DNA of 64,000 bases from Acutalibacteraceae bacterium. GTDB taxonomy: Bacteria; Bacillota; Clostridia; Oscillospirales; Acutalibacteraceae. The position numbers and the translations under genes are program-made. Below are positions 4,801-27,096 of the stretch, piece after piece (positions within the stretch are counted from its first letter, which is position 1; every line of letters starts with the position of its first letter). The notes under the pieces are model-generated. The model was not told the DNA's origin. It saw nothing but the letters and a program-made list of their open reading frames with translations, and made no database searches. The stretch is from assembly GCA_045591465.1 (NCBI GenBank), contig JAZNSZ010000018.1, positions 5,730 to 69,729 on the forward strand, in the 5' to 3' direction.

Positions 4801-4805
4801 ACAAG

Positions 4806-5381: not shown

Positions 5382-5394
5382 CACCGTCTTTTTT
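5367..5394 (+). terminator. Terminator after the deacetylase remnant
   Basis: GACGGCGC-tgaata-GCACCGTC followed by TTTTTT. Confidence 0.6.
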
Positions 5395-5424
5395 AGTGAA
5401 GAGTGAAAAGTGAATAGTGAAGAG
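5395..5424 (+). repeat. Heptamer array, AGTGAAN x4
   Basis: AGTGAAG AGTGAAA AGTGAAT AGTGAAG AG, read directly from the sequence. Confidence 0.7.
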
Positions 5425-5630
5425 TTTCGGTGTGCCTTCGGCACGGATATAAATTGGAAAAGCAGTGGCACTGCGACACAATGACTTGGGGGTTAATGTG
5501 TGTGTTTTCTTGTGTGTGATTTTCAAAGATATAAAATATTCCTCCTTCGTTTATTTCATTTTTAAATTCCTCTTACATTGTATTATCTAAATACAATATT
5601 AGTATTATAGAAAAATATTTAAAAAGCAAG

Positions 5631-5663
5631 AAAAAAAGACGGCGATTTTTCGCCGTCTTTTTT
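5631..5663. terminator. Bidirectional terminator downstream of the phosphatase gene
   Basis: A7-GACGGCG-attttt-CGCCGTC-T6. Confidence 0.7.
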
Positions 5664-5691
5664 CTATTTTTTGATATGTTAGTGTTGGGAA

Positions 5692-8410: not shown

Positions 8411-8488
8411 AATACCGAAAAATCGAACCATTTGGCCGAAAGAAAGGGATTATATTTTGTTTACGAAGTTATATAAATGTGTTATGAT
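8411..8488 (+). promoter_or_regulatory. hppA promoter region with a conserved upstream module
   Basis: TTTACG (8460-8465), 17-nt spacer, TATGAT (8483-8488) with an extended -10 TG. The upstream block 8411-8465 resembles 15978-16037. Confidence 0.45.
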
Positions 8489-8539
8489 GTAAGTTACAAA
8501 ATAAATCACAAAAATGTAGAAAGGTATAAGGTTTGTTTT

Positions 8540-10699: not shown

Positions 10700-11416
10700 G
10701 TGAGTTTTGCTAAAAGCAATATTTTAAAGAATGAACTCATTTCGAAAAAATCTCTTCGAATAAAATTATTGGGAGATTCTATAACTCATGGTTTTGGCGG
10801 AACAGGTTATTCGCCGACGGATGAGCATATTGTTGATGAGTTTTATCGTAATAACAAGGGCTATTGCTGGGCTAATTCTTTCAGGGACTATATGAAAGAT
10901 AAATTCAATTGCACCGTTATTAACAACGGTTGTTCGGGCACTACGATTGAATTTATTATCGATAATTTTGATATATTAGTTGACGATGAAGATGATTTTA
11001 TAATCTGCACCATAGGAACAAATAACCGTCATTTTTATTTCAGTGCCGGTGAAAAACCCGAACGCGAAGCTTTTGGCACCAATATTTATAACAACATTAT
11101 TAAACTCTACGATAAATTCAAATCTGCAAACAAGCAGGTAGTGTTTATTGCAAATATCCCCGCAGCTGCGGATAGAGAACTTGACAGTGATGAATTTTGG
11201 CGAATATTACATATGGATGATATCAACAATATTTACAAAAAAGCATCCGAAAACTGTGGTTTGCCGCTTATAAGCCTCTATGATCTGTTTTCGCAATATT
11301 GTCAAACGAACAACATAATCGTGGACTCGCTTTTATCTGATGGTTTGCATCCGAACGATGACGGATACGATGTTATGTTTAAGTTGATAACAGAAGCGTT
11401 GGAACTAGAACAGTAA
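10700..11416 (+). CDS. SGNH/GDSL-family hydrolase (esterase), paralog 1
   Basis: Block I LGDSITHG, block II NNGCSG, block III GTNN, block V DGLHPN. GTG start with a GGAG RBS. Confidence 0.8.
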   Translation: MSFAKSNILKNELISKKSLRIKLLGDSITHGFGGTGYSPTDEHIVDEFYRNNKGYCWANSFRDYMKDKFNCTVINNGCSGTTIEFIIDNFDILVDDEDDFIICTIGTNNRHFYFSAGEKPEREAFGTNIYNNIIKLYDKFKSANKQVVFIANIPAAADRELDSDEFWRILHMDDINNIYKKASENCGLPLISLYDLFSQYCQTNNIIVDSLLSDGLHPNDDGYDVMFKLITEALELEQ

Positions 11417-11460
11417 GCCTTAATTATGTACTGTTATAAAATTATAGGAGATAAATAGGT

Positions 11461-13638
11461 ATGGATATAAAGAAGTGGAGCATAGAAGAAACTAGTTTTC
11501 TTAAGGAAAACATAGAAATAAACGGAAGCCGTTTTTTAATAGGAAACGGTTATATGGGTTACCGCGGAACATTAGAAGAATTTGGTAAAGAGCAGTTGGT
11601 ATCGCTTAATATGGCGGGATTGTTCGACAAAAACGGCGATAATTGGAGAGAGTCGGTTAACGCTCCCAACCCCTTTTATATAAACGTGTTGGCAAATGGC
11701 ACTGAACTTAGTGTGCTTAGTTGTGATGTTGTTTCGCATTCTCAGGTTTTGGATATTAGTTGCGGACTTCACACAAGAAAAACAGTTTTCAATGTGGACG
11801 GCGCAAATGTAACTGTCGAAGCAGAGCGCTTTTTGAGTCTCGACAATGAACATATTGCCGCAATTAAATACAAAATTTCTTCCGATAAAGATGCAAAAAT
11901 TTCTGTTATCACAAAGCCTGATACAGATGTTTGGAATATCAGTGGTGAGCATTTTAAAGTACTTAACGAGACCACTAATCAAGGTATTACAACACTTGAT
12001 ATTGAGACTCTTGAAACCAAAACACCTATGCGGGTTTTAGAGTATGTAAAGTGCAAAGAGAATTTAATTGCATTCGATATTACTGCAAATAGTGAAGTTG
12101 TTTTTGAAAAACTTACAGGTGTTTATTGGGGCGATTTGTGCGCCGATGCTACAAGTGACTTTAAAAACGCTATTTCTAATGATTATGATACTTTGCTTTC
12201 TAAGCAAAAGGAATGCTGGGCAAAGTTCTGGGATACATCCGATGTTGTAATTGAGGGTGATGAGGAAGCGCAGTTTGCTTTGCGTTACAGTTTGTATCAC
12301 CTTAATTCGATTGTTCCGCGCAACACCGATAAATGCGGTATTCCTGCGCGTGGACTTTCGGGTCAGGTATATAAGGGAGCGGCTTTTTGGGACACCGAAA
12401 TGTTTATGATGCCGTTCTTCTCCTTTACCGATAAAAAACTTTGCGAAAACCTTGTAAAATATCGTGTTAACACCCTTGATGGCGCTAAAAGAAAGGCGAA
12501 AGAATTCGGTTTTGAAGGCGCATTTTATGCTTGGGAATGTCAAGAAACAGGTGACGATGCTTGTACACTTTTCAATGTTACCGATATTATTACAAATCGT
12601 CCTTTGAGAACGCATTTTAAGGATGGACAAATACATATAAGTGCCGATATGGTTTACGGATTATGGAATTATTGTATAGTAAATGACGACTATTCCATTT
12701 TGGGTGAGGGCGGCATGCAGATGATATATGAGTGCCTGTATTTTTATTATAGCCACTCTGTGTTTAAGCCGCTTAAAAACCGCTTTGAGCTTCATAGCGT
12801 TGTAGGCCCTGACGAATATCACGAATTAGTTAATAACAATGCATTTACAAACAAAGTGGTACAATGCACTGCTAAAATTTTCGTTAAAGCGCTTGAGTAT
12901 ATGAAGCAAAATATGAACGGTAAATACCAAGAATTTATCGAGAATAATGATGTTTCTTGGGTTGCAGATTTTGTAGGAAAACTTTATGTTCCGCAACCTA
13001 ATGAAAATGGCGTTATAGAGCAGTTTGACGGCTATTTTGGTCTTGAAGATATAAGTCTTCCAAAGCTTAAAGAGCGCATTATTATGCCTAACGAATATTT
13101 GGGCGGTGGTGCCGGTCTTGCGACTACCACAAGAATAATTAAACAAGCAGACGTTATTATGATGCTCAATGTTTTCAGAAACGAATATTCCAAGGAAATC
13201 AAGAAAGCTAACTGGGAGTTTTATGAACCATATACCGAACACGGTTCTTCTTTGAGCGCGTGTGCATACGGTATAGTTGCGGCTCAAATCGGTATGGCTG
13301 ATTGGGCATATAAATACTTCATGAAAACTGCAACAGTAGACCTTACGGGCGACTCGAAACAGTATGTCGGAAACCTTTATATAGGCGGAACACATCCTGC
13401 GGCAAATGGCGGCAGTTGGAATACGGCAATATTCGGGTTTGGCGGCGTAAGTTATACTGATGATGCGCTTGATATTTCACCAAGCCTTCCTGAAAAATGG
13501 AACAAACTTTCCTTTAAGCTTAATTGGAAAGGCGTATGGCTAACAGTGAATGTTACAAAGGATGGAGTAACAGTACAAGCCGAAGGTGATACGAGCGGAA
13601 TAAATGTCACAGTAAACAAAGAAAAATATGTATTTTGA
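11461..13638 (+). CDS. GH65-family glycoside phosphorylase (maltose/kojibiose/nigerose/trehalose phosphorylase type)
   Basis: GNGYMGYRG, LSGQVYKGAAFWDTEMFMMPFF and EQFDGY motifs. 725 aa, immediately followed by pgmB. Confidence 0.85.
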   Translation: MDIKKWSIEETSFLKENIEINGSRFLIGNGYMGYRGTLEEFGKEQLVSLNMAGLFDKNGDNWRESVNAPNPFYINVLANGTELSVLSCDVVSHSQVLDISCGLHTRKTVFNVDGANVTVEAERFLSLDNEHIAAIKYKISSDKDAKISVITKPDTDVWNISGEHFKVLNETTNQGITTLDIETLETKTPMRVLEYVKCKENLIAFDITANSEVVFEKLTGVYWGDLCADATSDFKNAISNDYDTLLSKQKECWAKFWDTSDVVIEGDEEAQFALRYSLYHLNSIVPRNTDKCGIPARGLSGQVYKGAAFWDTEMFMMPFFSFTDKKLCENLVKYRVNTLDGAKRKAKEFGFEGAFYAWECQETGDDACTLFNVTDIITNRPLRTHFKDGQIHISADMVYGLWNYCIVNDDYSILGEGGMQMIYECLYFYYSHSVFKPLKNRFELHSVVGPDEYHELVNNNAFTNKVVQCTAKIFVKALEYMKQNMNGKYQEFIENNDVSWVADFVGKLYVPQPNENGVIEQFDGYFGLEDISLPKLKERIIMPNEYLGGGAGLATTTRIIKQADVIMMLNVFRNEYSKEIKKANWEFYEPYTEHGSSLSACAYGIVAAQIGMADWAYKYFMKTATVDLTGDSKQYVGNLYIGGTHPAANGGSWNTAIFGFGGVSYTDDALDISPSLPEKWNKLSFKLNWKGVWLTVNVTKDGVTVQAEGDTSGINVTVNKEKYVF

Positions 13639-13646
13639 GGTGTAAT

Positions 13647-14267
13647 ATGAAGGGCGCAATATTTGATTTGGACGGCGTAATTGTAGATACTGCCAAATAT
13701 CATTATTTAGCTTGGAAAGAATTGGCTGAGCGACTTGGGTTTTTCTTTTCGGAAGAAGATAATGAACGCCTTAAGGGCGTGAGCCGTATGCGTTCACTTG
13801 AAATTTTGCTTGAAGTGGGCAATATTACTGCTACTGAAGAAGAAAAACTTCAAATGGCGGACGAGAAAAACAAAAGATATGTTGATATGCTTGCTACTTT
13901 AGATAAAAGCGAACTTTTAGAAGGTGCGGAAGAATATCTTAAAAAACTCAAAAGCGAAGGCGTTTTAATATCTTTAGGCTCGGCAAGTAAAAATGCACCG
14001 ATAATATTGGAAAAACTTGGGATTTACGACTTGTTTGATGCTATTGTCGACGGCAATAATGTATCAAAGGCAAAGCCTGACCCCGAAGTATTTTTAAAGG
14101 GCGCCGAGATGTTAAATCTTGACCCTAAAGACTGCTGCGTTTTTGAAGATTCACAAGCGGGTATTGAGGCCGCTCGTGCGGCAGGTTGCTCGGTTATTGC
14201 TATCGATAAATCTCACATTTTAACCGATGCTGACAAATATGTAACCTGTCTGGGTGATTTGTTATAA
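13647..14267 (+). CDS. pgmB: Beta-phosphoglucomutase (HAD superfamily)
   Basis: FDLDGVIVDT nucleophile motif, LKGVSR, SASKNA, KAKPDPEVF and FEDSQAGIEAARAAG motifs. GAGGTG RBS before the ATG at 13647. Confidence 0.85.
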   Translation: MKGAIFDLDGVIVDTAKYHYLAWKELAERLGFFFSEEDNERLKGVSRMRSLEILLEVGNITATEEEKLQMADEKNKRYVDMLATLDKSELLEGAEEYLKKLKSEGVLISLGSASKNAPIILEKLGIYDLFDAIVDGNNVSKAKPDPEVFLKGAEMLNLDPKDCCVFEDSQAGIEAARAAGCSVIAIDKSHILTDADKYVTCLGDLL

Positions 14268-14291
14268 TTATTTTTTTAAGAAGGTATCAAT

Positions 14292-15002
14292 ATGAAATAT
14301 ACTAAAACTGATATTTTGAAAAACGAACTAAATTCCAAGAAACCTTTAAGAATAAAATTGCTTGGTGACTCTATTACTCACGGTTTCGGCGGCACTGATT
14401 ATTCTCCCAACGAGGAACATATTGCGGATAGATTCCACCGCAATAACAAAGGTCATTGCTGGGCCAATTCTTTTAGGGATTATATGAAGGAAAAATATGA
14501 CTGCACCGTTATTAATAATGGTTGTTCCGGCACTAAAGTCGAGTTTATTATTAAGCATTTTGATACCTTGGTAGAAGATTCTGATGATTTTATAATATGC
14601 ACCATCGGAACCAATAATCGTCGACAGTTGTTTACAACCGGCGAAAAGTGCACACGCGAAGCTTTTGGTAAGAGATTTTATAACAATCTCATTAAGGTAT
14701 ATAATATGTGCAAAGAAGCAAATAAAAAGGTTTTATTTGTTGCGAATATACCCGCGGCCGCTTGTAATGAGCAGGATAAAGAAACTTTTTGGCGTATTTT
14801 GTACATGAATGATATAAACGAAATTCATAAAAGGGCTTCCGAAAAATGCGGTTTCCCGCTTATAAGCCTTTACGACCTTTTCACAAAGTATTGCAGTGAC
14901 AATAATGTGACTGTTGAATCTCTTTTGTGCGACGAGGTTCATCCAAATGATGCAGGATATGACGTTATGTTCAACCTGATGGTAGAGGCATTAGAAGTAT
15001 AA
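14292..15002 (+). CDS. SGNH/GDSL-family hydrolase, paralog 2
   Basis: About 65-70 percent aa identity by eye to 10700-11416. All four SGNH blocks are retained (block V is DEVHPN). Confidence 0.8.
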   Translation: MKYTKTDILKNELNSKKPLRIKLLGDSITHGFGGTDYSPNEEHIADRFHRNNKGHCWANSFRDYMKEKYDCTVINNGCSGTKVEFIIKHFDTLVEDSDDFIICTIGTNNRRQLFTTGEKCTREAFGKRFYNNLIKVYNMCKEANKKVLFVANIPAAACNEQDKETFWRILYMNDINEIHKRASEKCGFPLISLYDLFTKYCSDNNVTVESLLCDEVHPNDAGYDVMFNLMVEALEV

Positions 15003-15053: not shown

Positions 15054-15908
15054 TTATTGTTGGTGTTTTTTACGGAATTCGGCAGGAAGTGTATTTGTGT
15101 TCTTTTTAAAAAACAATTCAAACCCGCGCGAAGAAGAAAAACCGCATTTGTATGAGATTTCAGCAATACTCAGTTCTGAAATTTCCAAGTATTTTTTAGC
15201 AGCATTTAGTCGTGTTTCTGCGAGATTTTGGGAAAAAGATTTATTGGTGTATTTAAGCAACAACCTGTTGACATGGGTTTTGCTGTAATTGAGCGTTTGC
15301 GCCAAGTCGTCAATAGTTACATGCCTTGAAAAATTGTCGTAAAAAAAGCGGTCTATCAATACGCGTTGAGTCAAGGTGTCGCTTCTTTCTACGGTGAAAA
15401 AATTGTCCAAAGACTCATGCGGCAAAATTTGTTCGGCTATATAACTTATGATAGTTCCAAAACAGTTTTTAATTCTAAAACTATTGAGTTTGTGATTTTT
15501 GTCGTTAAAGTGAAAATGTATTGACAAAATATTTCTGTATATTTCGTTTTTTGTTTTTTTATCAGGCTTGTAAAGTTGATATAGTTTTTTGTTGTTTAAA
15601 TCGAGTATGTCTCTGAATAAAAAGCGGAATGAAAAACGTTTTAAATTTTCGCTGTACGAAACGATTCTATGTTCAGTATTTGGGAATATAACTAAAATAT
15701 CATGTTCCTTTAATTCGACTTCATCCATACCGCATTGAAGAACAAGGGAGCCACTTTCGATAAAATAAACCTCGAACATTGTATGAAAATGGGAGATACA
15801 TGAATCTTTTTTAATATTTTTTAACATGTTTAAGTAATCTATTCTAGCATCAATAGTAGTGCTGGCTAACTTGAATGTAAACTCAAGATGATCAATCTTC
15901 ATAAGCAT
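15054..15908 (-). CDS. AraC-family transcriptional regulator (cupin + HTH), divergent from the GRE operon
   Basis: C-terminal AraC HTH (IAEISYKCGFSSSRGFELFFKKNTNTLPAEFR) and an N-terminal cupin-like region. Confidence 0.85.
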   Translation of the reverse strand: MLMKIDHLEFTFKLASTTIDARIDYLNMLKNIKKDSCISHFHTMFEVYFIESGSLVLQCGMDEVELKEHDILVIFPNTEHRIVSYSENLKRFSFRFLFRDILDLNNKKLYQLYKPDKKTKNEIYRNILSIHFHFNDKNHKLNSFRIKNCFGTIISYIAEQILPHESLDNFFTVERSDTLTQRVLIDRFFYDNFSRHVTIDDLAQTLNYSKTHVNRLLLKYTNKSFSQNLAETRLNAAKKYLEISELSIAEISYKCGFSSSRGFELFFKKNTNTLPAEFRKKHQQ

Positions 15909-16093: not shown

Positions 16094-17089
16094 ATGTTAG
16101 AAAAATATTTAGCAGACTCGAATATCGTTGGCGCTACCGTGATAGAAACTCTTGATGGCGGATTGATGGCTTCGTATGGCACCGATTCCGGAAAACACTT
16201 TCTTAAAAGTTATGACAAGTTTAGAACTATTGCTGAAAGTTGGATAGTTCCGGTTGGAGGGTCGACCGCATGTGCAAATCTTTTACGTTTAAACGACGGA
16301 AGATTGATGATGGTTGTGCGTGAGGTTAGCGAAAATGAAAAAATAGCCGCAATAGGTGGCGCTAACTTTTACGCGGTGTATTCTGAAGATGACGGTAAGA
16401 CATTCGGTGAGTATCAAAGAATCAACAAAGAAGAAAATTGTTATTACATCATGAACAACCGAATAATAAGAACCCAGACTGGCCGAGTGCTAATTCCTGT
16501 ATGTTACGTTCCCGATAAACACACTGCAAAGGAATACCAAGAGAAAGCAGGTTGTGCAGGTTGTTTTTATAGCGACGACGATTGTAAAACCTGGAATGTC
16601 GGCGAGTGGTTAGAAAATATAAACGTTGACCAATTAGCAGAACCTATGATAGCGCAGGGCAAGGATGGCACCATCCACATGTATGCGCGTACTGGATATG
16701 GCTACTTGTATCGTTCAACTTCGACTGATGACGGCATCACGTGGGAACCTGCTCAAGCTTCAATGCTTCGTTCTCCCTGTGCTCCGTTCTGTATAAATTA
16801 CGATAAATACTCAAATAAATTTTTCGCAATATGGGATAACACTTTCCCCGCTGAAGCTCATGGCGGTCCCAGAACACCGATTTGCTTAGCAGTAAGTGAT
16901 GATTGTGTTAACTGGAAAGTACTTTTCGAACTTGATAACGATCCGTTTTATCAATACGGTTATCCGATGATGTATTTTGATGAGAAAGAAATACTTATAA
17001 CATACTACGAAAACCCCTCAAGAAGATATAACGTAGAAAACCATAAATTGAAAATGAAATTGTTCTCAAGAGAAGAAATTATTCTATGA
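16094..17089 (+). CDS. Cytoplasmic BNR/Asp-box beta-propeller protein (sialidase/GH33-like fold)
   Basis: Four Asp-boxes: SEDDGKTF, SDDDCKTW, STDDGITW, SDDCVNW. C-terminal YGYP...YYE resembles the sialidase Tyr region. No signal peptide and no FRIP motif seen. Confidence 0.7.
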   Translation: MLEKYLADSNIVGATVIETLDGGLMASYGTDSGKHFLKSYDKFRTIAESWIVPVGGSTACANLLRLNDGRLMMVVREVSENEKIAAIGGANFYAVYSEDDGKTFGEYQRINKEENCYYIMNNRIIRTQTGRVLIPVCYVPDKHTAKEYQEKAGCAGCFYSDDDCKTWNVGEWLENINVDQLAEPMIAQGKDGTIHMYARTGYGYLYRSTSTDDGITWEPAQASMLRSPCAPFCINYDKYSNKFFAIWDNTFPAEAHGGPRTPICLAVSDDCVNWKVLFELDNDPFYQYGYPMMYFDEKEILITYYENPSRRYNVENHKLKMKLFSREEIIL

Positions 17090-17868
17090 GTGTTACGGCG
17101 TGTGTAGCTGATATTCAACGCGCTTCTATCCATGACGGACCGGGCATAAGGACGACTGTGTTTTTTAAAGGCTGTCCGCTAAACTGTGCTTGGTGTCATA
17201 ATCCGGAATGCATAAGCAGAGAACCGCAAATACTTTTTTATCCCGAAAAATGTATCGGTTGCGGAATGTGTGATAAAGGATGCTATGCAGGTGCAAGGAT
17301 AGTATGTGGCAAAGAAATGACTGCCGAAGAAATTTTTAAGGAAATTTTGTTAGATAGGGCATATTACTCTACGGACGGCGGTGTTACTTTTTCCGGTGGC
17401 GAACCTATGATACACCCGGAAGTAATAAAAGAGTTGATTTGTCTTTGCAAAAAAGAGAAAATACATACTGCTATTGAAACTTCGCTTATTATTTTCGATG
17501 AGGAAATATTGGGGAATGTAGACTATGTTATGGCTGACTTTAAAATTTGGGATAGCCAAAAGCATAAAAGGTTTACGGGAGTTTCAAATGAAACTATAAA
17601 AGAAAATTTCAAAAAACTTGATTCTTTGAATGTTCCGTTCATCGTTAGAACGCCGATAATTCCCGGCATCAATGATACGGCAGAAGAAATAGAAAATATT
17701 AGAAATTTTATCAAACAATTCAAAAACATTAAAAATTATGAGCTTTTGCCATATCATCCGTTGGGTGTAGAAAAGCAAAAAGCATTGGGAATGGAAAAAA
17801 CCGAATTTTCTATTCCTGACAGAGTTCAAATGGAGGCGTTGCAAAGGTATGCTAACCTACAAGGATAG
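17086..17868 (+). CDS. Glycyl-radical enzyme activating protein (radical SAM)
   Basis: CPLNCAWC (CX3CX2C) near the N-terminus after DGPGIR. One ferredoxin-like CIGCGMCDKGC motif, then GGEP. The start overlaps the upstream stop (ATGA). Confidence 0.9.
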   Translation: MSVTACVADIQRASIHDGPGIRTTVFFKGCPLNCAWCHNPECISREPQILFYPEKCIGCGMCDKGCYAGARIVCGKEMTAEEIFKEILLDRAYYSTDGGVTFSGGEPMIHPEVIKELICLCKKEKIHTAIETSLIIFDEEILGNVDYVMADFKIWDSQKHKRFTGVSNETIKENFKKLDSLNVPFIVRTPIIPGINDTAEEIENIRNFIKQFKNIKNYELLPYHPLGVEKQKALGMEKTEFSIPDRVQMEALQRYANLQG

Positions 17869-20071
17869 GCTTAACGCTATTAGAGAAACCAAGATACAAC
17901 ACACTTTGCAAAAGCGTGAGCAAAACGGCTATACCGACCTTGATGATTTCGGCACGGTACCGCTACCTGAAAATTACAAAGTAGAGCCTTGGTATAACAG
18001 TGAAAACGGTAGTTTTTACGGTATCGATGGAATGAGCGAGAATTTTTGCAGAGTAATGGATGCGCATCCTGCTTATGTAGACCCAATGGAAATGCTTTGC
18101 GGAAGATGGCGCGACATGCTGGTTAATTATCGTGGCGACTTGCATTACATGCCAAAATGGCGTAAGGCGCAAATGGTAAATGACGATTTGTCACAGGTTA
18201 CTAATCAGTGGAGCAAACGTTGGGACGAAATAAGATTCCCGTACGATGATTTAAAACCGTTGCAAAAAAAATACAACATAACATCGGGTATTGACGCAGA
18301 CGCTCACCTTGCTTGTGATTACTCGATAGGTTTAAACTTAGGGTTTGGCGGTTTTCTTGATAAAATAGAAAAATACCGCAAAATCAATCCCCAAAAAGCT
18401 GATTTTTATGACGCTGAAGAAAAGTGCGTAAAGGCTATTGTTCGTTTTATAGACCGCAACATTGCCGAAATAGAAAAGCTTTTATTAACAGAGAATAGAC
18501 CTGAGATTATCGAAAGTTTAAACGAAATGTTACAGGTAAATAAAAATATACGACTAAATAAACCTGAAACTTTTTATGAAGCTTGTCAATGGGTTGCTTA
18601 TTTCAACTGTGCGGCGCGTATTTATACACGCGACGGTGCAGGTTTCCAACTTGATACATTGCTTTATCCCTATTATTTAAATGATAAGCAAAACGGAATA
18701 CTTGATGACGAAAAGGCTAAGTTCTTAATTGCGAATCTTTTAGTAATAGACCCGCATTATTATCAGGTATCGGGTGTAGATGTAAATGATAACGACATTA
18801 CGAATGAACTTTCATTTCTTATTTTAGATGCTTGTGATGCGATAAACATATCGGCGAATATAACAGTAAGGTATCACGAAAAATGCAATAAAGAATTTTT
18901 CGATAAAGCTGTTTATTATTTGCTAAAGAATAAGAATGGTTGGCCGCGTTTCTGCAGTGATAAAAATTTATCAGCAGGCTATATGAGAAATATCGGTGTA
19001 ACCAAAGAGATAGCACGAAAAAGAATTGCGGTTGGTTGCAACTGGATGTGCGTCCCCGGTATAGAGTTCCCTATGAACGATACCGTTAAGATAAATATAG
19101 CGAAGGTGTTCGAGTGGGCACTTATAGATATGAAAAGCGAAGAGAATAAATCGACAGAAAGACTGTTCACGCTTTTCGCATCGCACCTTGAAAAAGCAGT
19201 TGATATAACTGCTAAGGGAATAAATTTCCATATAGACCACCAAGCAGAAGTAACTCCTGAACTTATAATGAATCTTATGATGGAGGATACGATAGAAAAA
19301 GGTCTTGACATTTCGCAATGTGCGAAACTTTATACCGTAGGTATAGATGGTGCCGGTCTTGCCGTCGTGGCGGATTCGTTTGGCGCACTTGAACAAAGAG
19401 TTGAAGATGAGAAAATACTCACCTGGGATGAGATTTATGAAAATCTTGAAAACAACTTTGAAGATGTTTCAGGTGAACGCGTAAGACTTATTTTAAACTC
19501 AAGCCCCAAATACTGCGGCGGAGATACGGCGGCTGATAAATGGGCAAAACGATTAACTGAATGTTGGGTTGAAAAAGTCAAAGGACAGGAAATGCCCGAA
19601 AACAGACAGTTAATACCGGGCTGGTTCAGTTGGTCCAGAAGCATTGAGTACGGCTCCGTGGTAGGCGCTACGCCAAATGGCAGAAAAAGCGGCGAACCTA
19701 TTTCGCACGGCGCTAATCCTAATCCTCATTTCAGAACCGACGGCGCTGTTACAGCGCAGTCTAACGGAATAGCCGCTGTGCAATGCGGTTGGGGTAATAC
19801 GGCTCCGTTACAAATTGAATTTGACCCACAAATTTCCGATGATGAAAAAGGTGTATCTATTATAGGTAACCTTGTTAAGAGTCATTTTGAGCAAGGCGGA
19901 ACACTCATTAATATAAATGTTCTAGATGCTCAAAAATTAAAAGAAGCACATGAGAATCCAGATTTACATCCGGACCTGGTTGTTAGAGTTACAGGCTTTA
20001 CAGCTTATTTTGCTTCTTTGTCACCGCAATTCCGTGAATTAGTGGTACAAAGATTTTTGGAGGGGATGTAA
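17849..20071 (+). CDS. Glycyl radical enzyme, PFL2/dehydratase-like fold, unknown substrate
   Basis: C-terminal glycyl radical motif VVRVTGFTAYF (Gly716, codon 19994-19996). GATPNGRKSGEPISHGANP. Cys loop AVGCNWMCVPG (Cys397, codon 19037-19039). Confidence 0.9.
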   Translation: MLTYKDRLNAIRETKIQHTLQKREQNGYTDLDDFGTVPLPENYKVEPWYNSENGSFYGIDGMSENFCRVMDAHPAYVDPMEMLCGRWRDMLVNYRGDLHYMPKWRKAQMVNDDLSQVTNQWSKRWDEIRFPYDDLKPLQKKYNITSGIDADAHLACDYSIGLNLGFGGFLDKIEKYRKINPQKADFYDAEEKCVKAIVRFIDRNIAEIEKLLLTENRPEIIESLNEMLQVNKNIRLNKPETFYEACQWVAYFNCAARIYTRDGAGFQLDTLLYPYYLNDKQNGILDDEKAKFLIANLLVIDPHYYQVSGVDVNDNDITNELSFLILDACDAINISANITVRYHEKCNKEFFDKAVYYLLKNKNGWPRFCSDKNLSAGYMRNIGVTKEIARKRIAVGCNWMCVPGIEFPMNDTVKINIAKVFEWALIDMKSEENKSTERLFTLFASHLEKAVDITAKGINFHIDHQAEVTPELIMNLMMEDTIEKGLDISQCAKLYTVGIDGAGLAVVADSFGALEQRVEDEKILTWDEIYENLENNFEDVSGERVRLILNSSPKYCGGDTAADKWAKRLTECWVEKVKGQEMPENRQLIPGWFSWSRSIEYGSVVGATPNGRKSGEPISHGANPNPHFRTDGAVTAQSNGIAAVQCGWGNTAPLQIEFDPQISDDEKGVSIIGNLVKSHFEQGGTLININVLDAQKLKEAHENPDLHPDLVVRVTGFTAYFASLSPQFRELVVQRFLEGM

Positions 20072-21243
20072 TGAATAATTGTGAAACTGTTTTAAAAGGC
20101 TCCTATGACGTTATAGTTGTAGGCGGCGGTATAGCCGGTGTTGCGGCTTCTGTCTCAGCTGCGAGACAAGGCATGTCGGTTTTACTGATTGAAAAAGGCG
20201 TCAACCTTGGCGGTCTTGCAACATCGGGATTGATTTCTTGGTACGAACCGCTTTGTGATGGCTTAGGAAATCAAACAACATACGGAATCGCCGAAGAGCT
20301 CATAAAGTTATGTTGCAAATACAACTTTGAGAACCTACCGGTAAAATGGGGCGGCGACGGGCATAACAAGTCGAACAACGAACGTTATGCTACATATTTT
20401 TCACCAACTGTTTTCACCTTGGCGCTTGACGAATATGTTTTGGCGAACGGTGTTAAACTTTGTTTCGATGGTTTGGCAACATATCCTGTTATGGACGGTA
20501 ATATTTGTACCGGCGTTATAGTTGAGACCGTAAGCGGCAGAGAACAATTTAATGCAAAATTTGTAATCGATGCTACGGGTACTGCTTCTATAATGGATCG
20601 CGCAGGAGTACCTACCGTATGCGGCGAAAACTATATGACCTATGTGGTTCATTGGTTTGATGTCGAAGGTGCCGAAAAATTAGTTGATGATAAGAATATA
20701 TGTAAATTCAGGCGTTGGATGAATGCCGGCAGTGATATGATGGGCAAAGGTCATCCTGAAAATATGGGTATGTTATCGGGAGTTTCTTCCGAAGATGTTA
20801 CAAATTATATGATTGCGGGAAAAGCAAGACTGTTAAATAAACTTCGTGATAAGGATAAAAACAGTTTTGATGTAATGACCTTACCAAATATGCCACAGTT
20901 CAGAAAAATAAGACGAATTGTAGGCAAGACCGACTTCAACGCAATAGACGGCGAGAAGTATGAAGATTCCATAGGAAATTGCAGTGACTTTAGACCGAAC
21001 GGTAAAGGTAAACATTACCAAATACCCGGCACTTCACTTTTCAATGAAAACTTTGGCAATTTAATTGCCGCGGGAAGAATCATATCGGCGCCGGATGTAG
21101 ACGGTTGGGAAGTAGCACGAGTTATTCCAAACTGTGCGCTTACCGGTGAAGCGGCTGGTAAAATGGCTGCTTTGTGTATTAAAGAAAATAAACAACTAAA
21201 TCAACTTGATAAAGATGACTTTAGTAGAATAAAAATCAATTAG
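20071..21243 (+). CDS. FAD-dependent oxidoreductase
   Basis: N-terminal Rossmann motif DVIVVGGGIAGVAASVSAARQGMSVLLIEK. The start overlaps the GRE stop (TAATG). Confidence 0.8.
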   Translation: MNNCETVLKGSYDVIVVGGGIAGVAASVSAARQGMSVLLIEKGVNLGGLATSGLISWYEPLCDGLGNQTTYGIAEELIKLCCKYNFENLPVKWGGDGHNKSNNERYATYFSPTVFTLALDEYVLANGVKLCFDGLATYPVMDGNICTGVIVETVSGREQFNAKFVIDATGTASIMDRAGVPTVCGENYMTYVVHWFDVEGAEKLVDDKNICKFRRWMNAGSDMMGKGHPENMGMLSGVSSEDVTNYMIAGKARLLNKLRDKDKNSFDVMTLPNMPQFRKIRRIVGKTDFNAIDGEKYEDSIGNCSDFRPNGKGKHYQIPGTSLFNENFGNLIAAGRIISAPDVDGWEVARVIPNCALTGEAAGKMAALCIKENKQLNQLDKDDFSRIKIN

Positions 21244-21254: not shown

Positions 21255-22178
21255 ATGGCTTTAGAAAATTTTAAGTATGTAATACCGGCTTTTAACACAC
21301 CATTTGATAAGGACGGCAACTATTCTGAAGAACGCGCTAAGCAAATGTTAGAATGGCAATTAAGCAAAGGCGTAGGCGGTTTTTATTTGTTAGGTAGTAA
21401 CGGTTTCGGCCCTGCTATTGAGAAAAAGGAACGCATGGAAGCGTTGGAGTCAATTTGCTCAATCGTTAATAACCGCGTTGAAACAGTAGCTCACGTTGCC
21501 GCAGTTTCAACCAATGATACTATTGCGATGGCTAAACATGCACAGTCAGTAGGATGCGCTGCTATATCTGCTGTACCTTCTTATTACTACAAGTTAAGAC
21601 CCGAAGAAATGTATAGATACTATGCAGAAGTAGCAGAAGCAGTTGATATTCCTTTGATTGTATATGCAAAAACTGCTGACTATGCTCCTTCAGTAGAAAT
21701 GTTCCAAAAGTTAGCTGAAATCCCGAATGTTAAGGGCGTAAAATTCACCGGTCCTAACCACTACATGATGGGTAGAATTAAAGAACATTTAGGAAAAGAC
21801 TTTAAGGTATATTCAGGTTATGACGAAATGTGCTTATCAGGTATTATGTCCGGCGCAGATGCAGTTATCGGTGGTACATATAACCTTTATCCTGATTTGA
21901 TTATTCGTTCAATCGATAAATTGTTAGCAGGCGATGTAGCCGGTGCTCAAAAGGATTACTTAGCAAGTAATGCAATAATCGAAGTATTGTTCAAATACGG
22001 CAACCTTACTTCAGTAATGCGTGCTGCTATGTCATTCATGGGAATTGATGCAGGTTATAATCCGTCACCATACACTGAAATGGATCCCGCTAAGTTACCA
22101 CAACTCAAGGCTGAGTTAAAAGAACTCAAAGCAAAACTTGATATAGAAGATATCGATTTGTTAAAGGCTGTTGAGTAA
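21255..22178 (+). CDS. DapA/NanA-family class I (pyruvate-dependent) aldolase, divergent
   Basis: PSYYYK motif and the Schiff-base Lys context VKGVKFTG (NanA-like). The usual GTTGE/GSTGE motif is replaced by GSNGFG. Confidence 0.75.
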   Translation: MALENFKYVIPAFNTPFDKDGNYSEERAKQMLEWQLSKGVGGFYLLGSNGFGPAIEKKERMEALESICSIVNNRVETVAHVAAVSTNDTIAMAKHAQSVGCAAISAVPSYYYKLRPEEMYRYYAEVAEAVDIPLIVYAKTADYAPSVEMFQKLAEIPNVKGVKFTGPNHYMMGRIKEHLGKDFKVYSGYDEMCLSGIMSGADAVIGGTYNLYPDLIIRSIDKLLAGDVAGAQKDYLASNAIIEVLFKYGNLTSVMRAAMSFMGIDAGYNPSPYTEMDPAKLPQLKAELKELKAKLDIEDIDLLKAVE

Positions 22179-22326: not shown

Positions 22327-24873
22327 GTGAATAAAAATAAAATCGGCATTTGGCAAATGGATATGGGCCAGAATGTATCGATTGGTGATTTTAACAACGT
22401 TACCGACGTTGAGAAATACGGTGTAACACCGGGTCAAAAAGGTGACCATCCACAAGAGATTATAAATCCCGATGCTCGTCCGATAGTTTACCGAGAATTC
22501 AATCCGGAAGAATATCAATATTACTTCTTAGGTAAAGATTATTTTTACGGTATTTTAAAAGATGGTGCCGAAGTTATTTCTGCAGTAGACGATAAAGGCC
22601 GTTTGCTTGATGTTTATGACTGTGCCGGTAAGTTTAAATTAGCTGTCAGAGGTAACGATATAAAATTTTTAATGACCGATATCGCTTCTTTTGAAGAAGT
22701 TACGGTTGATGGTTATAAAGGTGTTAAAATTTGGTACAATTGTGAAACAACTTGCCGTTTCGTTGATGAAGCAGCTGCTACATACTTGTTCAAGGAAACA
22801 GGAATTTCGGTTAAACTACACGCTGCATGGCAGGGCTTAGAAGATGAAGTTCTTAAAGGCGGATGCTCGGTTGTTAGAAAAGCGTTAAACGATACACCGA
22901 TAACAAAGAAGCGAATTTCGTACAACTGGAATTATCCGGAAGATAACGACTTTACTCATTTGGTTGGCGAATCGGTTGCTATTTCGGGTGAGTATGACGG
23001 TATTGCGGTTTATACATTCTGCCGCGACACTACACCGGATAAGAGATTTAATCTTAAGGTTTGCGATTGCGAACGTTTTCAGTTAGATGTCGGAACGAAC
23101 ACAAAGGATGTCGACCATACATATTATATAGATATCGTCTTCGTGAAGGCATCCGAAAAAGAAAGTTATGAAGCGCTCTTCAAGGGCCGTCATATGAACT
23201 TTGCGGCAGGTATTGCTGCAGTAGAAGATAATGAATCTACTACATTCTTTATGGGCAAAGATGTTTTACTTAACATCAATGTTACCAATATTTCAAATTC
23301 TGATATAGAGTTTGGTGTAAGATACAATGTAATTAACCATTATAATGAAGTTGTATCAAGCGGGACATTCTATCACAACAAATTGGCAGTAGGAGAACAG
23401 GCAAACCGTAATCTTGATTTAAAACTTGATAACTACGGTATGCATTATCTCAACTTGTATGTTACCGATGGTGTTAGTGAGTACCGCGAGTGTTACCACT
23501 TTGCAATGCTTGAAGAGTTTGACTTTAAGTATAGAACAAAGAGCCAGTTTGGTATCTGCGCTCCCCATACCGACAACGCGGGTGAGAGCGAAGTTACCGC
23601 AAAGCTACTCAAAAAGATGGGTATTAGCGCAACAAGACTTGGTGTAAGTTTAGACCATTATTTGTCTGACTGTCTTGAAGAAAACGGAATTGATAGATTA
23701 GTTGGTATATACGGAAACAAGGGTGTACCTGCTGATGAATATGCCAAAGCGGTAAAAGACCGCGCTGATGAGTGGATGGATGAAATCGAGTGTTTCCTAA
23801 TTGGTAATGAAATGGATAAGTTTACTAAGGGCAACTACGATAAGAGTAAGCGCCTTTTGGAAACTAACTATATTCCAAACACAATTAACCCGGTTTACGA
23901 TTACCTTACTACTAAATATCCTGATAAGGATATAGTTTGGGAAAGTAACTGCCACGGATCGCTTGAATGGTTAGAAGCCTTCTACGAAACGGGACTTTGG
24001 GACAAATCGAAAATCATTGATGTCCATTCATATAGTAGTCCATCGGGACCTGACAAGTGTTTCTCCAATCAATGGGCGAGTATGCAAGCAAGTCTATTCT
24101 CTAACGAATATGCTGCGGTACGCTGGAAACGTATTACAAGACGTTACGGCGATAAGCGACTTATGATAGGCGAGACAGGTTATCCCACCCCTTACGACGA
24201 CAGAAGGGAAATTGACATCCGTACACAAGCGGACTTCAATACAAGAATAGCGTTATTCTTCCTTGAAGTAAAAGCGGAACTTATCAATTTCTATTGCTTG
24301 TTTGACCGTATAAGTTGGGCAGAGGGTACAGGCACCGGTAAAAATGTTCAAATGTTCTTTGGCGCGTGCTATAACCACGACTATTACGGCATATATATGC
24401 CGAAGCCTTGGGCGGCAGCATACGCTAACCTTACAAGACGACTCGACGGTGTTGATACTTGTAAATTCTTCGATGATTACGAAGAAGACGAGTGGGGAAC
24501 ACTTCGTGCCTTTAAGGTTACTAAAAAGGACGGTACCGAGTTAGCGGTTCTTTGGTCGAATATTTATATGCAACCTAATACAACCGCTGAAGGCCGTATG
24601 AACAATGTCGAGCGTATACCTTTCCCTGCTTGGGAAAACCACTGGTTAGAAACCGAAACTCGTACCTTTGCTGCTGTCGGTGATACGGTAGAAGTTATCG
24701 ATATAATGGGTAACAAAAAGGTATATACCGCAAAAGACGGCAAGGTTGATATTGAAGTTAGCGGTTCGCCAATATTCGTTTATGGCATTAAGGGCAATTC
24801 TGAAATTGATCCCGAAAAAGCGAATAATCGTGACAGTGATATTCCGGTTGTAGGCACTGCCGGTATCTGTTAG
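22327..24873 (+). CDS. Putative cytoplasmic glycoside hydrolase, clan GH-A-like TIM barrel in the C-terminal half; paralog of 45360-48113
   Basis: LIGNEMD (acid/base NE) and MIGETGYP (nucleophile E) motifs, conserved in the paralog as ENGNES and ITEVGYA. No signal peptide. GTG start 12 nt after AGGAGG. Confidence 0.55.
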   Translation: MNKNKIGIWQMDMGQNVSIGDFNNVTDVEKYGVTPGQKGDHPQEIINPDARPIVYREFNPEEYQYYFLGKDYFYGILKDGAEVISAVDDKGRLLDVYDCAGKFKLAVRGNDIKFLMTDIASFEEVTVDGYKGVKIWYNCETTCRFVDEAAATYLFKETGISVKLHAAWQGLEDEVLKGGCSVVRKALNDTPITKKRISYNWNYPEDNDFTHLVGESVAISGEYDGIAVYTFCRDTTPDKRFNLKVCDCERFQLDVGTNTKDVDHTYYIDIVFVKASEKESYEALFKGRHMNFAAGIAAVEDNESTTFFMGKDVLLNINVTNISNSDIEFGVRYNVINHYNEVVSSGTFYHNKLAVGEQANRNLDLKLDNYGMHYLNLYVTDGVSEYRECYHFAMLEEFDFKYRTKSQFGICAPHTDNAGESEVTAKLLKKMGISATRLGVSLDHYLSDCLEENGIDRLVGIYGNKGVPADEYAKAVKDRADEWMDEIECFLIGNEMDKFTKGNYDKSKRLLETNYIPNTINPVYDYLTTKYPDKDIVWESNCHGSLEWLEAFYETGLWDKSKIIDVHSYSSPSGPDKCFSNQWASMQASLFSNEYAAVRWKRITRRYGDKRLMIGETGYPTPYDDRREIDIRTQADFNTRIALFFLEVKAELINFYCLFDRISWAEGTGTGKNVQMFFGACYNHDYYGIYMPKPWAAAYANLTRRLDGVDTCKFFDDYEEDEWGTLRAFKVTKKDGTELAVLWSNIYMQPNTTAEGRMNNVERIPFPAWENHWLETETRTFAAVGDTVEVIDIMGNKKVYTAKDGKVDIEVSGSPIFVYGIKGNSEIDPEKANNRDSDIPVVGTAGIC

Positions 24874-24938
24874 TGCTTTATGTGGTGATAATACCACTTT
24901 AATATATATAAATAAATTATTTAAAGGAGTGTCTAATT

Positions 24939-26957
24939 ATGAAAAAATTTACCTTTGGTAAAAACATTTCCCATGTGGGAAAAATATTTTTCTCTTTGGT
25001 TTTAACCTTGGCACTATTACTTAGCACTGTAGTATTTTCTTCTGCAGATGGTGAAACCGCTGCTGATTTCGGCGGTTATGCTACAAAGTATACCCACGTG
25101 TATTCACCTATGGATTTGATTACAGCAGCAAACACATCACCAAAATTTGTTGGTTATGATAGTACTACTAAAGATTACGGTTCTTCAGTTTGGAAGTTTG
25201 ATGCTATTGAAAATGACGTAAAGCACACCATGATAACCACAAATAAATTTTCAGTTAATGAAACTAGCCCTAATAAAGGTTATATTCAGTTATCTAATAC
25301 TGGTGCAAGTTTAAAAGCGGTATATAAATTCTATGCTTCAACTTTAGCATATGAAAATACAGCTCAAGAATACATGCACAGAACTATTCAGTATGAAAGT
25401 ACTAAAGGCGAACACATGGCTTTTGGTTTTACTGCTCCCGTATCAGGAACCTATGAAATAGCAGCTCCTATTCAAAAGGTTTCAGGAACAACTCTTGTTA
25501 ATTTCGGTGTTACTAAGACAGATGCTTTAGGCAGTGAAACTGAACTTCAAGCATTAGCTGAACTTGTAGACCAAGATAGATTCTGCGATTTAATTGTAGA
25601 CCTCGCAGCAGGTGAAACAGTATGGCTTAATGCAAGATTTGCAGGCGTTGTAACTTTAGATATCGGTATTCCACAGGCTATTCTTCTTAACAATGCAATC
25701 GTCGAGACAGAAACTGCAAAAACCTACAAATTCCGTGCAATCGACTATCTTGAAAATACAAACACAAATGATATTACATACGACGGCAATTCTACCACTT
25801 CAAATACAAAGGCAGCTTGGGAAACAGGATATATTAGTGATACTGTACAAGCAAAAAACGTAGCTGGTTTTACTGGCAAAATTTTTAAATTTGATAATAT
25901 TACTATGCCTTTATTAGCCTCTGACGAAGGAACTGAAGTAGACGCAAGTGTACTTAATGCAATGAAGCGTTACGAGATACTTTCTGCCGGTAAAGCATAT
26001 GTAGGTTTGCCTCTTAGAGAAATAAAAGAGGGCGGAGCACTCGCTTCTAGCTCCGGCGTAGGTGCGTTATGGCCTGTAAGTGGTAAGTTGTTTGAAAACC
26101 CCGGCACTATTCATCTCGGCGGCACCGATGCAAATATTGCTGGAACAAACACAGCAGTGTTTAACGGATACCCTGATACTGGCAAGAATTTATCCACCAG
26201 TATCACTTCTAGTGCTCATTACTATCGCTTTACTGCTCCTGTTTCAGGTTCTGCAACCGTAAATCTTAATAGCGATAATGCAGAAGATGCAACTAATCCA
26301 TTTAATGGCACAACAAAGTTAATTGTTTTACAAGGCAATACCATTAAGCGTGTTTTAGACGATTTAAGCCAGCCTACCTTTGAGATTGAAAATCTTGAAA
26401 AAGGCGAACAAATCACCTTAATATACTATGGTTATAAAGCAGCTTCAGAACAAGTTAACATCGGTTCTCCGTTAGTTGAAATATCTGTAAGTAAACCGGT
26501 ATACGCTACTGTAACTTATGATTTAGACGGCGGTACAATTGAAGGCGAAACCAAAGTACAAGTTGAACTTGTTCCTACAACAAATGAAGAAGGCGGAACC
26601 GATTACATCGGAACCATCACACCTCCGAGAGCAACTAAGAAAAATGCTATACATAAAGCTTGGTATATTGGTGAAGAAGGAAAGACATTAGGCAAAGAGT
26701 TTACAATAACAGGCGATGTAACAGTAAAAGCTGTTTACAACTATTTAGGTGACTATACCGGTGACAGAGTACTTGACGAAAAAGATATTGCAGAATATAA
26801 ATTGGTACTTTTAGGTTTAGTTGAGCCTTATGACTTGGCATTTTCTGAGCCTAACGCTAACGGCGATAAAGATGAAGAAGGTAATGATATAATCGATATT
26901 TGCGACCTTGTTTGCGCTTACGAATTTTTACAGGAGCAAAATCAGTCTTTTTCTTAA
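24939..26957 (+). CDS. Secreted protein with two copies of the F-x-AP-x-SG module, a Listeria-Bacteroides-type repeat and a C-terminal dockerin-like module
   Basis: Signal peptide. FGFTAPVSGTYE and YRFTAPVSGSATV. VTYDLDGG repeat. Two EF-hand-like segments, DYTGDRVLDEKD and DEEGNDIIDICD. Confidence 0.6.
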   Translation: MKKFTFGKNISHVGKIFFSLVLTLALLLSTVVFSSADGETAADFGGYATKYTHVYSPMDLITAANTSPKFVGYDSTTKDYGSSVWKFDAIENDVKHTMITTNKFSVNETSPNKGYIQLSNTGASLKAVYKFYASTLAYENTAQEYMHRTIQYESTKGEHMAFGFTAPVSGTYEIAAPIQKVSGTTLVNFGVTKTDALGSETELQALAELVDQDRFCDLIVDLAAGETVWLNARFAGVVTLDIGIPQAILLNNAIVETETAKTYKFRAIDYLENTNTNDITYDGNSTTSNTKAAWETGYISDTVQAKNVAGFTGKIFKFDNITMPLLASDEGTEVDASVLNAMKRYEILSAGKAYVGLPLREIKEGGALASSSGVGALWPVSGKLFENPGTIHLGGTDANIAGTNTAVFNGYPDTGKNLSTSITSSAHYYRFTAPVSGSATVNLNSDNAEDATNPFNGTTKLIVLQGNTIKRVLDDLSQPTFEIENLEKGEQITLIYYGYKAASEQVNIGSPLVEISVSKPVYATVTYDLDGGTIEGETKVQVELVPTTNEEGGTDYIGTITPPRATKKNAIHKAWYIGEEGKTLGKEFTITGDVTVKAVYNYLGDYTGDRVLDEKDIAEYKLVLLGLVEPYDLAFSEPNANGDKDEEGNDIIDICDLVCAYEFLQEQNQSFS

Positions 26958-27096
26958 TGTGAATTTATTGTAAAATAAGCAAATTAAAGAGTATAGAAAC
27001 GCAGGTTATAATTTCTTTTTATCCCGTTAATCCTGCGTTTATGACAAAGTAAATTTTTCCTGGTTTCTTGACTGGGGATATCATTGTGGAGATGTT

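Follow-up and report, generated by a model that had tools for sequence, protein, structure and literature searches.

A glycyl radical enzyme from an Acutalibacteraceae bacterium belongs to a large uncharacterised clade with Trp in place of the Cys-loop Glu

A stretch of 64,000 nucleotides from an Acutalibacteraceae bacterium (assembly GCA_045591465.1, contig JAZNSZ010000018.1, positions 5,730 to 69,729 of the forward strand), hereafter the window, encodes a glycyl radical enzyme (GRE) whose Cys loop carries Trp at the position where known eliminases carry Glu. A preliminary description made from the sequence had drawn attention to this loop. The loop is less an oddity of one gene than the mark of a large unstudied branch of the GRE superfamily, defined by the pattern Cys-x-Trp (C-x-W), to which the enzyme belongs. 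Sequence comparisons indicate that Glu gave way to Trp once, long ago, at the root of a large monophyletic group, and that the change is not peculiar to this gene. Because the orthologs are usually located beside sugar-oxidising genes, the enzyme probably carries out an unknown radical chemistry on a sugar-like compound. The explanation that we favour, with about even confidence, is that the protein is an active GRE of this deep, monophyletic and uncharacterised clade, and that it acts on a sugar or cyclitol without a base on the Cys loop.

The Glu of the Cys-x-Glu (C-x-E) pattern, on which all characterised eliminase and isomerase GREs rely, also guides the search for new GRE functions by motif. 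Entire GRE clades remain unannotated (PMC13450708). Hundreds of gut and rumen species hold a monophyletic branch in which this Glu was swapped once for Trp, and the Trp has been kept since. Its recurrent linkage to sugar-hydroxyl oxidoreductases makes the branch a concrete and testable way into GRE chemistry beyond the classes now recognised, and possibly into an anaerobic route for diet-derived carbohydrates, glycosides or inositol that has so far escaped notice. The feature that merits study is Trp399 together with Glu471, Asp411 and His153, rather than the second Cys that stands four residues after the catalytic one.

The enzyme and its catalytic Cys

The features on which the argument rests are listed here by their positions in the window.

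17849..20071, plus strand: GRE of 740 aa (the query), a member of the C-x-W clade, with PFL-like and Gly_radical domains
17086..17868, plus strand: GRE-activating radical SAM enzyme (activase) of 260 aa, with Radical_SAM and Fer4_12 domains; TIGR02494 at 278 bits against a cut-off of 174
19031..19051, plus strand: Cys-loop motif V-G-C-N-W-M-C (V395 to C401 of the GRE), encoded as gtt ggt tgc aac tgg atg tgc
19037-19039, 19043-19045 and 19049-19051, plus strand: codons of C397, W399 and C401, from translation of the GRE open reading frame (ORF)
19985..19999, plus strand: Gly loop R-V-T-G-F (R713-V-T-G716-F), in the Gly_radical domain

A Pfam scan of the GRE ORF matched the PFL-like domain PF02901 at 5.5e-87 and the Gly_radical domain PF01228 at 2.6e-13. 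Translation of the ORF confirmed the loop that had been read at 19031-19051 and the position given for Cys397 at about 54% of the protein; the exact figure is 53.6%, and the wider loop is A-V-G-C-N-W-M-C-V-P-G. Gly716 (19994-19996), the predicted site of the glycyl radical, is invariant across an alignment of 36 diverse relatives of the query (alignment A1), which was also the basis of a structure model made with AlphaFold2 (AF2).

Assignment of the thiyl Cys to Cys397, as proposed in the preliminary description, holds by two kinds of evidence. In HMMER alignments to three solved GREs (2f3o, 8yjo and 1r8w), C397 falls each time on the catalytic Cys of a G-C-V-E loop and W399 on its Glu. The register of these alignments is trustworthy because the printed numbering of 1r8w reproduces the literature residues C433, E435, D447 and H164. 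In addition, C397 is the sole invariant Cys in alignment A1. The catalytic Cys might have lain elsewhere, in a canonical C-x-E or Cys-Cys (CC) context, and the alignments to solved structures exclude this. A check of the whole 740-aa sequence found no C-x-E elsewhere and no CC anywhere, and an alternative Cys of either kind was rejected on that ground. By alignment, Cys397 is established as the catalytic Cys. In the AF2 model (pLDDT 93.5, pTM 0.93), residues 395-399 form the tip of a coil that joins two short strands, the arrangement expected of the finger loop that carries the Cys.

Among all PDB chains, phmmer returned 36 GRE matches for the query, led by Archaeoglobus fulgidus PFL2 (2f3o, 6.5e-57), Escherichia coli PflD (8yjo, 2.6e-51), glycerol dehydratase (GD; 1r8w, 3.1e-48) and HypD (4.5e-44). 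The structures of BSS, 4-hydroxyphenylacetate decarboxylase (HPAD) and pyruvate formate lyase (PFL) match at just 1e-14 to 1e-17; individual scores are 4.3e-14 for BSS (4pkc), 8e-15 for HPAD and 5.6e-19 for MASS, against 1e-57 to 1e-44 for eliminase-type structures. Foldseek with the AF2 model likewise retrieved PflD, propanediol dehydratase (PD) and GD at TM scores of about 0.83 and 20-23% identity. By both sequence and fold, the nearest relatives are therefore eliminases and isomerases (2f3o, PflD, GD and HypD), not BSS, HPAD or PFL. No solved structure above about 23% identity was found in the PDB searches.

A 2026 review (PMC13450708) states that C-x-E is kept in each of the six C-O eliminases, in CutC, in the C-S lyases and in the three isomerases, where the Glu makes a hydrogen bond to the substrate or takes a proton from it, and that only PFL and TdcE carry a second Cys on the loop. 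The review thus bears out the earlier statement that known eliminases have Glu at the second position after the Cys (Cys+2) and that PFL-type enzymes have Cys-Cys.

Loss of the canonical catalytic Glu could mean that the protein is a degenerate, non-catalytic GRE homologue that serves as a spare radical carrier or is a pseudoenzyme. We find this hardly credible. The ORF of 740 aa is intact, and its Gly716 and Cys397 are both invariant. Translation of the GRE is coupled to that of the activase (the activase stop and the GRE start overlap by 20 nt), and relatives of conserved length occur in at least 589 species genomes. From the domains, the Gly loop and an activase that scores above its curated cut-off, the GRE and its activase are both read as intact.

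A clade-wide Trp and a variable second Cys

The motif is no chance feature, and its Trp at Cys+2 is conserved at every depth of comparison. Of the 120 database proteins closest to the query (72-87% identity), 119 have the loop G-C-N-W-M-C and one has G-C-N-W-M-A. When one genome per species was scanned, at least 589 encoded a relative of the GRE; the loci from the best 80 of these genomes (55-81% identity to the query) all carry G-C-x-W (80/80). A HMMER search over 1.84 billion cluster representatives gave 4232 matches, and the best 150 were aligned with MAFFT. All full-length sequences that cluster with the query in this alignment, even at identities as low as about 25%, show the pattern G-C-[NHFQGPY]-W, with Trp at Cys+2. 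W399 is invariant in alignment A1 (36/36) and among the full-length representatives of the clade (26/26). In a neighbour-joining tree of 92 full-length representatives, one branch separates these 26 C-x-W proteins from the 66 others, which mostly have C-[VI]-E.

The query has all the traits of the clade: G-C-x-W, R-V-T-G-[FY], invariant Asp411 and Glu471, a length of about 715-760 aa, and placement within the monophyletic group. Clade proteins are 50-100 residues shorter than typical eliminases. Residues 1-144 of the query (window 17849-18280) have no counterpart by sequence in any solved GRE, with alignments beginning near residue 145. The N-terminal stretch of about 140 residues is strongly conserved in the clade and is modelled confidently though mostly as coil. 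The best 80 genomes are metagenome-assembled genomes of gut and rumen Clostridia. Acutalibacteraceae, Oscillospiraceae and Lachnospiraceae make up most of them, and the samples came from deer, goat, buffalo, chicken and human (Hadza or Nepali) hosts. Proteins of the clade are named in databases only as 'formate acetyltransferase' or 'pyruvate formate lyase family protein', and such PFL-type names are wrong because the Cys-Cys motif is missing.

The preliminary description had asked whether the whole motif C-N-W-x-C is conserved in the clade and had singled out the Cys at +4. The Cys and Trp part stands (36/36 in A1); the +4 part does not. Residue 401 in alignment A1 is Cys in 16 sequences, Ala in 7, Ser in 4, Val in 4 and Gly in 3. 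About 85% of close orthologs share Cys401, and several orthologs (55-81% identity) with the same operon have Ala there. On conservation, Cys401 was rejected as a second catalytic Cys, and this comparison establishes the +4 Cys as dispensable and not clade-defining.

These counts also bear on a two-cysteine mechanism, a reading to which the weight given to the +4 Cys in the preliminary description would lead. Cys397 and Cys401 would then act as a PFL-like thiyl relay or as H donors on opposite faces for an epimerisation. The prevalence of Cys401 among close orthologs speaks for such a role. Against it, Cys401 gives way to Ala, Ser, Val or Gly in A1, Ala is tolerated within the same operon, and in the AF2 model Cys401 is not at the tip of the loop but on the strand that leads back from it (400-401). 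We consider this mechanism very unlikely, and the least likely when set against a base at Glu471 or non-polar chemistry, which are taken up below.

Other non-Glu loops were seen among distant representatives (C-N-N, C-S-T, C-V-Q, C-V-G, C-V-S and C-I-D). In five loci (L007 at 12361-14538, L028, L065, L067 and L071), a second GRE paralog that lacks G-C-x-W adjoins the C-x-W enzyme. The paralogs of L007 and L028 have their own activases, and that of L071 reads N-G-C-N-Q-I-D, with Gln at Cys+2.

Residues that switched with Trp and residues that were kept

A column-by-column comparison of 26 C-x-W and 54 C-x-E full-length representatives, together with the alignment to GD, brought out three further polar positions.

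19259..19261, plus strand: Glu471, clade-specific invariant Glu; 100% of C-x-W against 2% of C-x-E representatives; 36/36 in A1
19079..19081, plus strand: Asp411, equivalent of GD Asp447; 100% of C-x-W against 30% of C-x-E representatives; 36/36 in A1
18305..18307, plus strand: His153, equivalent of GD His164 by alignment; 33/36 in A1

Residue 399 itself is Trp in 100% of the C-x-W clade and always Glu in the C-x-E relatives. Other positions changed less completely: Glu406 is found in 88% of the clade against 13% of the relatives, Thr715, beside Gly716, in 88% against 11% (34/36 in A1), and Trp at position 166 in 88% against 0%, the query having Phe there.

His153 is among the residues kept in both groups. 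His164 of GD has been proposed to protonate the leaving hydroxyl (PMC13450708). The suggestion in the preliminary description that loss of the Glu points to another chemistry or another proton relay is a reasonable one. With His153 and Asp411 retained, half of the acid/base pair of the dehydratases survives while the base on the Cys loop is gone, and this retention argues against a wholesale change to non-polar chemistry. An aromatic strand of the query, P-G-W-F-S-W (W592, F593, W595), aligns to P-G-L-Y640-P-S of GD, with Phe593 at Tyr640.

Glu471 is a candidate partner of Trp399 or a candidate relocated base, as judged from conservation. The second possibility leads to the highest-ranked rival to the explanation that we favour. 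A base elsewhere in the pocket, with Glu471 as prime candidate (or Glu406 or Asp411), would support a Glu-assisted 1,2-elimination or ring-opening isomerisation like those of GD, HypD, YbiW and PflD, and Trp399 would merely pack against or position something. That Glu471 switches together with the change from Glu to Trp is consistent with this proposal, as are the enrichment of Glu406, the retention of His153 and Asp411, and the closeness of the query in both sequence and fold to eliminases and isomerases. However, the AF2 model places residue 471 in a loop that follows a long helix (436-468). No first-shell active-site residue of GD, HypD, CutC, IslA, BSS or PFL is known to come from this region, and for that reason a relocated base is ranked as a rival and not as the lead. 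Moreover, the covariation of Glu471 and Trp399 represents a single phylogenetic event, so a contact between them is not proven. We judge a relocated base unlikely.

Gene context of the orthologs

All ORFs of the 80 orthologous loci were clustered to define the common operon. An activase homologue (at least 50% query coverage) is present in 69 of the 80. The dominant arrangement comprises a divergent AraC gene, one to five Gfo/Idh/MocA oxidoreductase genes, often a xylose-isomerase-like TIM barrel of about 255 aa, the activase and the GRE. The operon has AraC-type genes at its flank in 33 plus 11 loci, and a Gfo/Idh/MocA gene lies within 5 kb in 53 of the 61 loci that have enough upstream DNA.

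Two types of Gfo protein predominate. The first occurs in 50 loci, in 48 of 63 cases as the gene next upstream of the activase, and has only weak PDB relatives. The second is found in 45 loci, and its matches to DgpA, a C-glycoside 3-oxidoreductase, are at 2e-59 and 2e-51. The nearest solved relatives of the TIM-barrel partner are 3ngf, YgbM, ketose 3-epimerases and a 3-keto-glucoside 4-epimerase. These loci establish that the orthogroup is operon-linked to sugar oxidoreductases.

A 779-aa protein with a GDPD domain (glycerophosphodiester phosphodiesterase-like) is encoded inside the Gfo-type GRE operon of two close relatives (loci L081 at 2964-5303 and L001 at 3968-6301). This insertion hints that a compound derived from an inositol or glycerol phosphodiester could feed the pathway.

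The operon in the window has other partners.

16094..17089, plus strand: BNR_2 protein of 331 aa, distantly GH33 sialidase-like; Pfam BNR_2 at 8e-24, PDB sialidases at 5e-12
20071..21243, plus strand: FAD-dependent oxidoreductase (PF12831) of 390 aa; Pfam 1.4e-52
21255..22178, plus strand: DHDPS-family, N-acetylneuraminate-lyase-like (NanA-like) aldolase of 307 aa; Pfam DHDPS at 3.6e-58
15054..15908, minus strand: divergent AraC-family regulator; Pfam HTH_18 and AraC_binding

The end of the BNR_2 gene overlaps the activase start, and the start of the FAD oxidoreductase gene overlaps the GRE stop by 1 nt. With such overlapping ends, the genes for BNR_2, the activase, the GRE and the FAD oxidoreductase form one tightly coupled four-gene unit. 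The aldolase reaches 198 bits on the NCBIfam NanA model, under the cut-off of 281, and is found beside the GRE in no other locus among the 80 species loci. The BNR, NanA-like and 848-aa neighbours (the last described with the surrounding window) were rejected as general guides to function, since they stand beside the GRE in 0/80 species loci, and count as local context only. A PDB search gave no informative relatives for the FAD oxidoreductase. No riboswitch was detected upstream of the GRE operon, as an Rfam scan of the whole window matched just one tRNA.

Orthologs of the FAD oxidoreductase (FAD_oxidored; 48-77% identity to the window gene) lie near the GRE in 14 other loci. The closest relative of the query (L082, 87% identity) is accompanied by DUF386, AraC, activase and FAD_oxidored genes and by a 747-aa protein that combines 3keto-disac_hyd and BNR_2 domains. 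In another relative, 83% identical, the operon is of the Gfo type and is preceded by rhaM and a gene for a sugar-binding protein. Both the window and the Gfo-type contexts point to oxidation of sugar hydroxyls and to keto-sugar intermediates.

A mechanistic model and its competitors

In the mechanism that we favour, the cognate activase would install a radical on Gly716, and a thiyl radical would then be generated on Cys397 at the tip of the Cys loop. Trp399 may form an aromatic wall or stacking platform for the ring of a sugar or cyclitol beside the site of H abstraction. Once an H atom had been removed from a carbinol carbon, a C-O bond (possibly a C-C bond) would break, chiefly through acid catalysis by the retained pair His153 and Asp411 and not through deprotonation by the Cys loop. 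The substrate would most likely be neutral and sugar-derived, such as a keto-sugar, an anhydro-sugar, a glycoside or inositol, and could be made or consumed by the accompanying sugar-hydroxyl oxidoreductases.

Several points weigh against this model. The query's own context is of a minority type, unlike the Gfo-type operon of the majority. The linkage to sugar genes is strong just for the orthogroup at 55-87% identity, and the distant C-x-W members P0151 and P0125 lie in unrelated and uninformative contexts. The substrate class may therefore differ across the clade while the Trp does not, and a substrate class that is not clade-wide would weaken a rationale based purely on sugar stacking. No consistent kinase or transporter that would pin down the substrate was found in the operons of the orthogroup. 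In chemical terms, elimination without a base is less favoured: for the eliminations of known GREs, deprotonation of the alpha-hydroxyl is considered essential, and the E491 mutant of CutC and the E470 mutant of IslA are inactive (PMC13450708).

An alternative that dispenses with a base at the radical carbon is non-polar radical chemistry, either C-C cleavage or formation or a decarboxylation, on a substrate with an aromatic part. The substrate could be, for example, the aglycone of a C-glycoside or polyphenol glycoside; Trp399 would pi-stack on its ring, by analogy with X-succinate synthases and phenylacetate decarboxylase (PAD). The DgpA-like oxidoreductase of 45 orthologous loci lends itself to this view, given that DgpA acts on aryl C-glycosides, as do the aromatic-rich pocket strand (W592, F593 and W595) and the precedent of PAD, in which Gln484 and Trp495 are essential. 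Gln484 would lie at Cys+2 if Cys482, which the review does not name, is the catalytic Cys. On the other side, BSS (4e-14), HPAD (8e-15) and PAD/IAD-type models match far more weakly than the eliminases. Small accessory subunits are absent beside the GRE, no partner of the DgpB/C type was identified in the operons (the TIM barrel being Hyi/epimerase-like), and the polar pair His153 and Asp411 is conserved. Such chemistry is doubtful, and we place it below a relocated base.

A more far-reaching reading, to which we allow a slim chance, ranks lower again than non-polar chemistry. The C-x-W clade would be a new mechanistic class of GRE in which Trp is catalytic rather than merely steric, as a redox relay or as a platform for base-free cleavage. 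The relay could pass from the thiyl to a Trp radical for one-electron oxidation of a bulky glycoside; the platform could promote base-free cleavage of a glycosidic C-O or C-C bond, or of a cyclitol C-O bond, together with DgpA-like 3-oxidoreductases. If true, a new class of this kind would supply gut and rumen Clostridia with a radical route of sugar, glycoside or inositol breakdown that is absent from pathway maps.

The surrounding window

The GRE operon lies in a glycan-utilisation region that includes GH65 and beta-phosphoglucomutase genes, two GDSL esterases, ABC sugar transporters and DUF5696.

8477-10651: H+-pyrophosphatase, just upstream of the GDSL/GH65 group (10700-15002)
10700-11416 and 14292-15002: two paralogous GDSL esterases that flank the GH65/HAD pair
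11461-13638: GH65 glycoside phosphorylase
13635-14267: beta-phosphoglucomutase-like HAD protein
22327-34221 and 45360-48113: run of large proteins downstream of the GRE operon (848, 672, 491 and 917 aa) without a Pfam match
34247-45331: 920-aa protein with a solute-binding domain in its C-terminal half only, two ABC permease pairs, an NHL/TPR propeller protein, a Yip1 protein and a DUF5696 protein (838 aa)
48276-51036: ThuA-like gene, Gfo/Idh/MocA oxidoreductase and xylose-isomerase-like TIM barrel in a row
58686-58759, minus strand: tRNA gene, the only match in the Rfam scan

The 848-aa protein has no PDB match, and a 1874-aa ORF lies in the same run as the 848-aa and 672-aa proteins. The 672-aa protein has a signal-like segment at its N terminus and a dockerin-like, Asp-rich C terminus. 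The segment at 34247-45331 looks like an unusual glycan-uptake locus. The genes at 48276-51036, about 29 kb downstream of the GRE, are a 3-keto-glycoside-type module; its Gfo gene is the sole one in the window and encodes a protein 32% identical to the DgpA-like partner of the orthologs.

Comparison with known glycyl radical enzymes

The query shares the hallmarks of the superfamily: a PFL-like ten-stranded barrel domain, a C-terminal R-V-x-G domain, the Cys of the Cys loop and an adjoining cognate activase. It falls outside each described class. Trp399 replaces the Glu common to the 1,2-eliminases and isomerases with C-x-E (GD, PD, HypD, CutC, IslA, HpsG, HplG, YbiW and PflD), and the score of the query on every eliminase or isomerase equivalog model is far under that model's own cut-off (about 1000-1100 bits). 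The loop G-C-N-W lacks the Cys-Cys of the formate-lyases PFL and TdcE (TIGR01255, 70 against 994). For the decarboxylases (HPAD, IAD, PAD and AAD), the query scores 108 against 1150 on NF033715 and 114 against 1100 on NF033718, and the Glu at Cys+2 that HPAD and IAD possess is not present. Similarity to the X-succinate synthases BSS and MASS is weak, and the GRE is flanked by the activase and the 390-aa FAD protein, not by small subunits.

Of the curated NCBIfam models, that of the broad TIGR01774 subfamily fits best, and on it the query obtains 267 bits where the cut-off is 678. Like the query, ten diverse clade members lie far under every NCBIfam cut-off, with TIGR01774 scores of 267-374 bits across the set. 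We found no curated family, solved structure or paper that covers the C-x-W clade. A full-text literature search likewise turned up no paper that describes a C-x-W loop, none that links a GRE to Gfo/MocA, DgpA, C-glycosides or 3-keto-glycosides, and none that links one to sialic acid, inositol/inosose or sugar-phosphate isomerase clusters.

The closest solved relative by sequence is A. fulgidus PFL2 (2f3o), a GRE of debated function that, like the query, has no assigned role. Unlike the query, it has a G-C-V-E loop and lies outside the C-x-W clade. PflD ranks first in the Foldseek comparison (8yjo, TM 0.83) and second by sequence, and shares with the query the fold, the Gly loop, the Cys position and the H-x-x-x-D-Y and H/N-D motifs. 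PflD and YbiW (8yjo, 8id0 and 8id7) are isomerases that open the ring of 1,5-anhydrohexitol-6-phosphates, and thus act on sugars. However, they have C-x-E, with the Glu deprotonating the C2-OH, where the query has Trp, and identity is only about 22%. The query also lacks the PTS, kinase or aldolase context of the anhydroglycolysis type, its partners being Gfo/Idh/MocA or FAD oxidoreductases instead.

GD (1r8w) and PD (5i2a and 9rco) resemble the query in fold (TM about 0.83) and in the retained equivalents of His164 and Asp447, and the replacement of Tyr640 by Phe593 is conservative. In contrast, Glu435 of GD has become Trp399, the region of Ser282 is deleted in the query, and the query is shorter by 50-100 residues.

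Precedent for a working GRE without a Glu on the Cys loop comes from PAD (PhdB) and the X-succinate synthases. These enzymes are far more distant in sequence and have non-polar substrates, and the accessory subunits of BSS and HPAD are absent beside the query.

Finally, C-glycoside deglycosylation by DgpA-DgpBC and the 3-keto-glycoside pathways are analogues of the gene context, not homologues of the GRE. Like DgpA-DgpBC, the orthologous operons combine a DgpA-like Gfo/Idh/MocA oxidoreductase (2e-59) with a xylose-isomerase-like TIM barrel. This barrel resembles Hyi, YgbM and ketose epimerases rather than the lyase subunits, and neither DgpA-DgpBC nor the other 3-keto-glycoside pathways include a known GRE.

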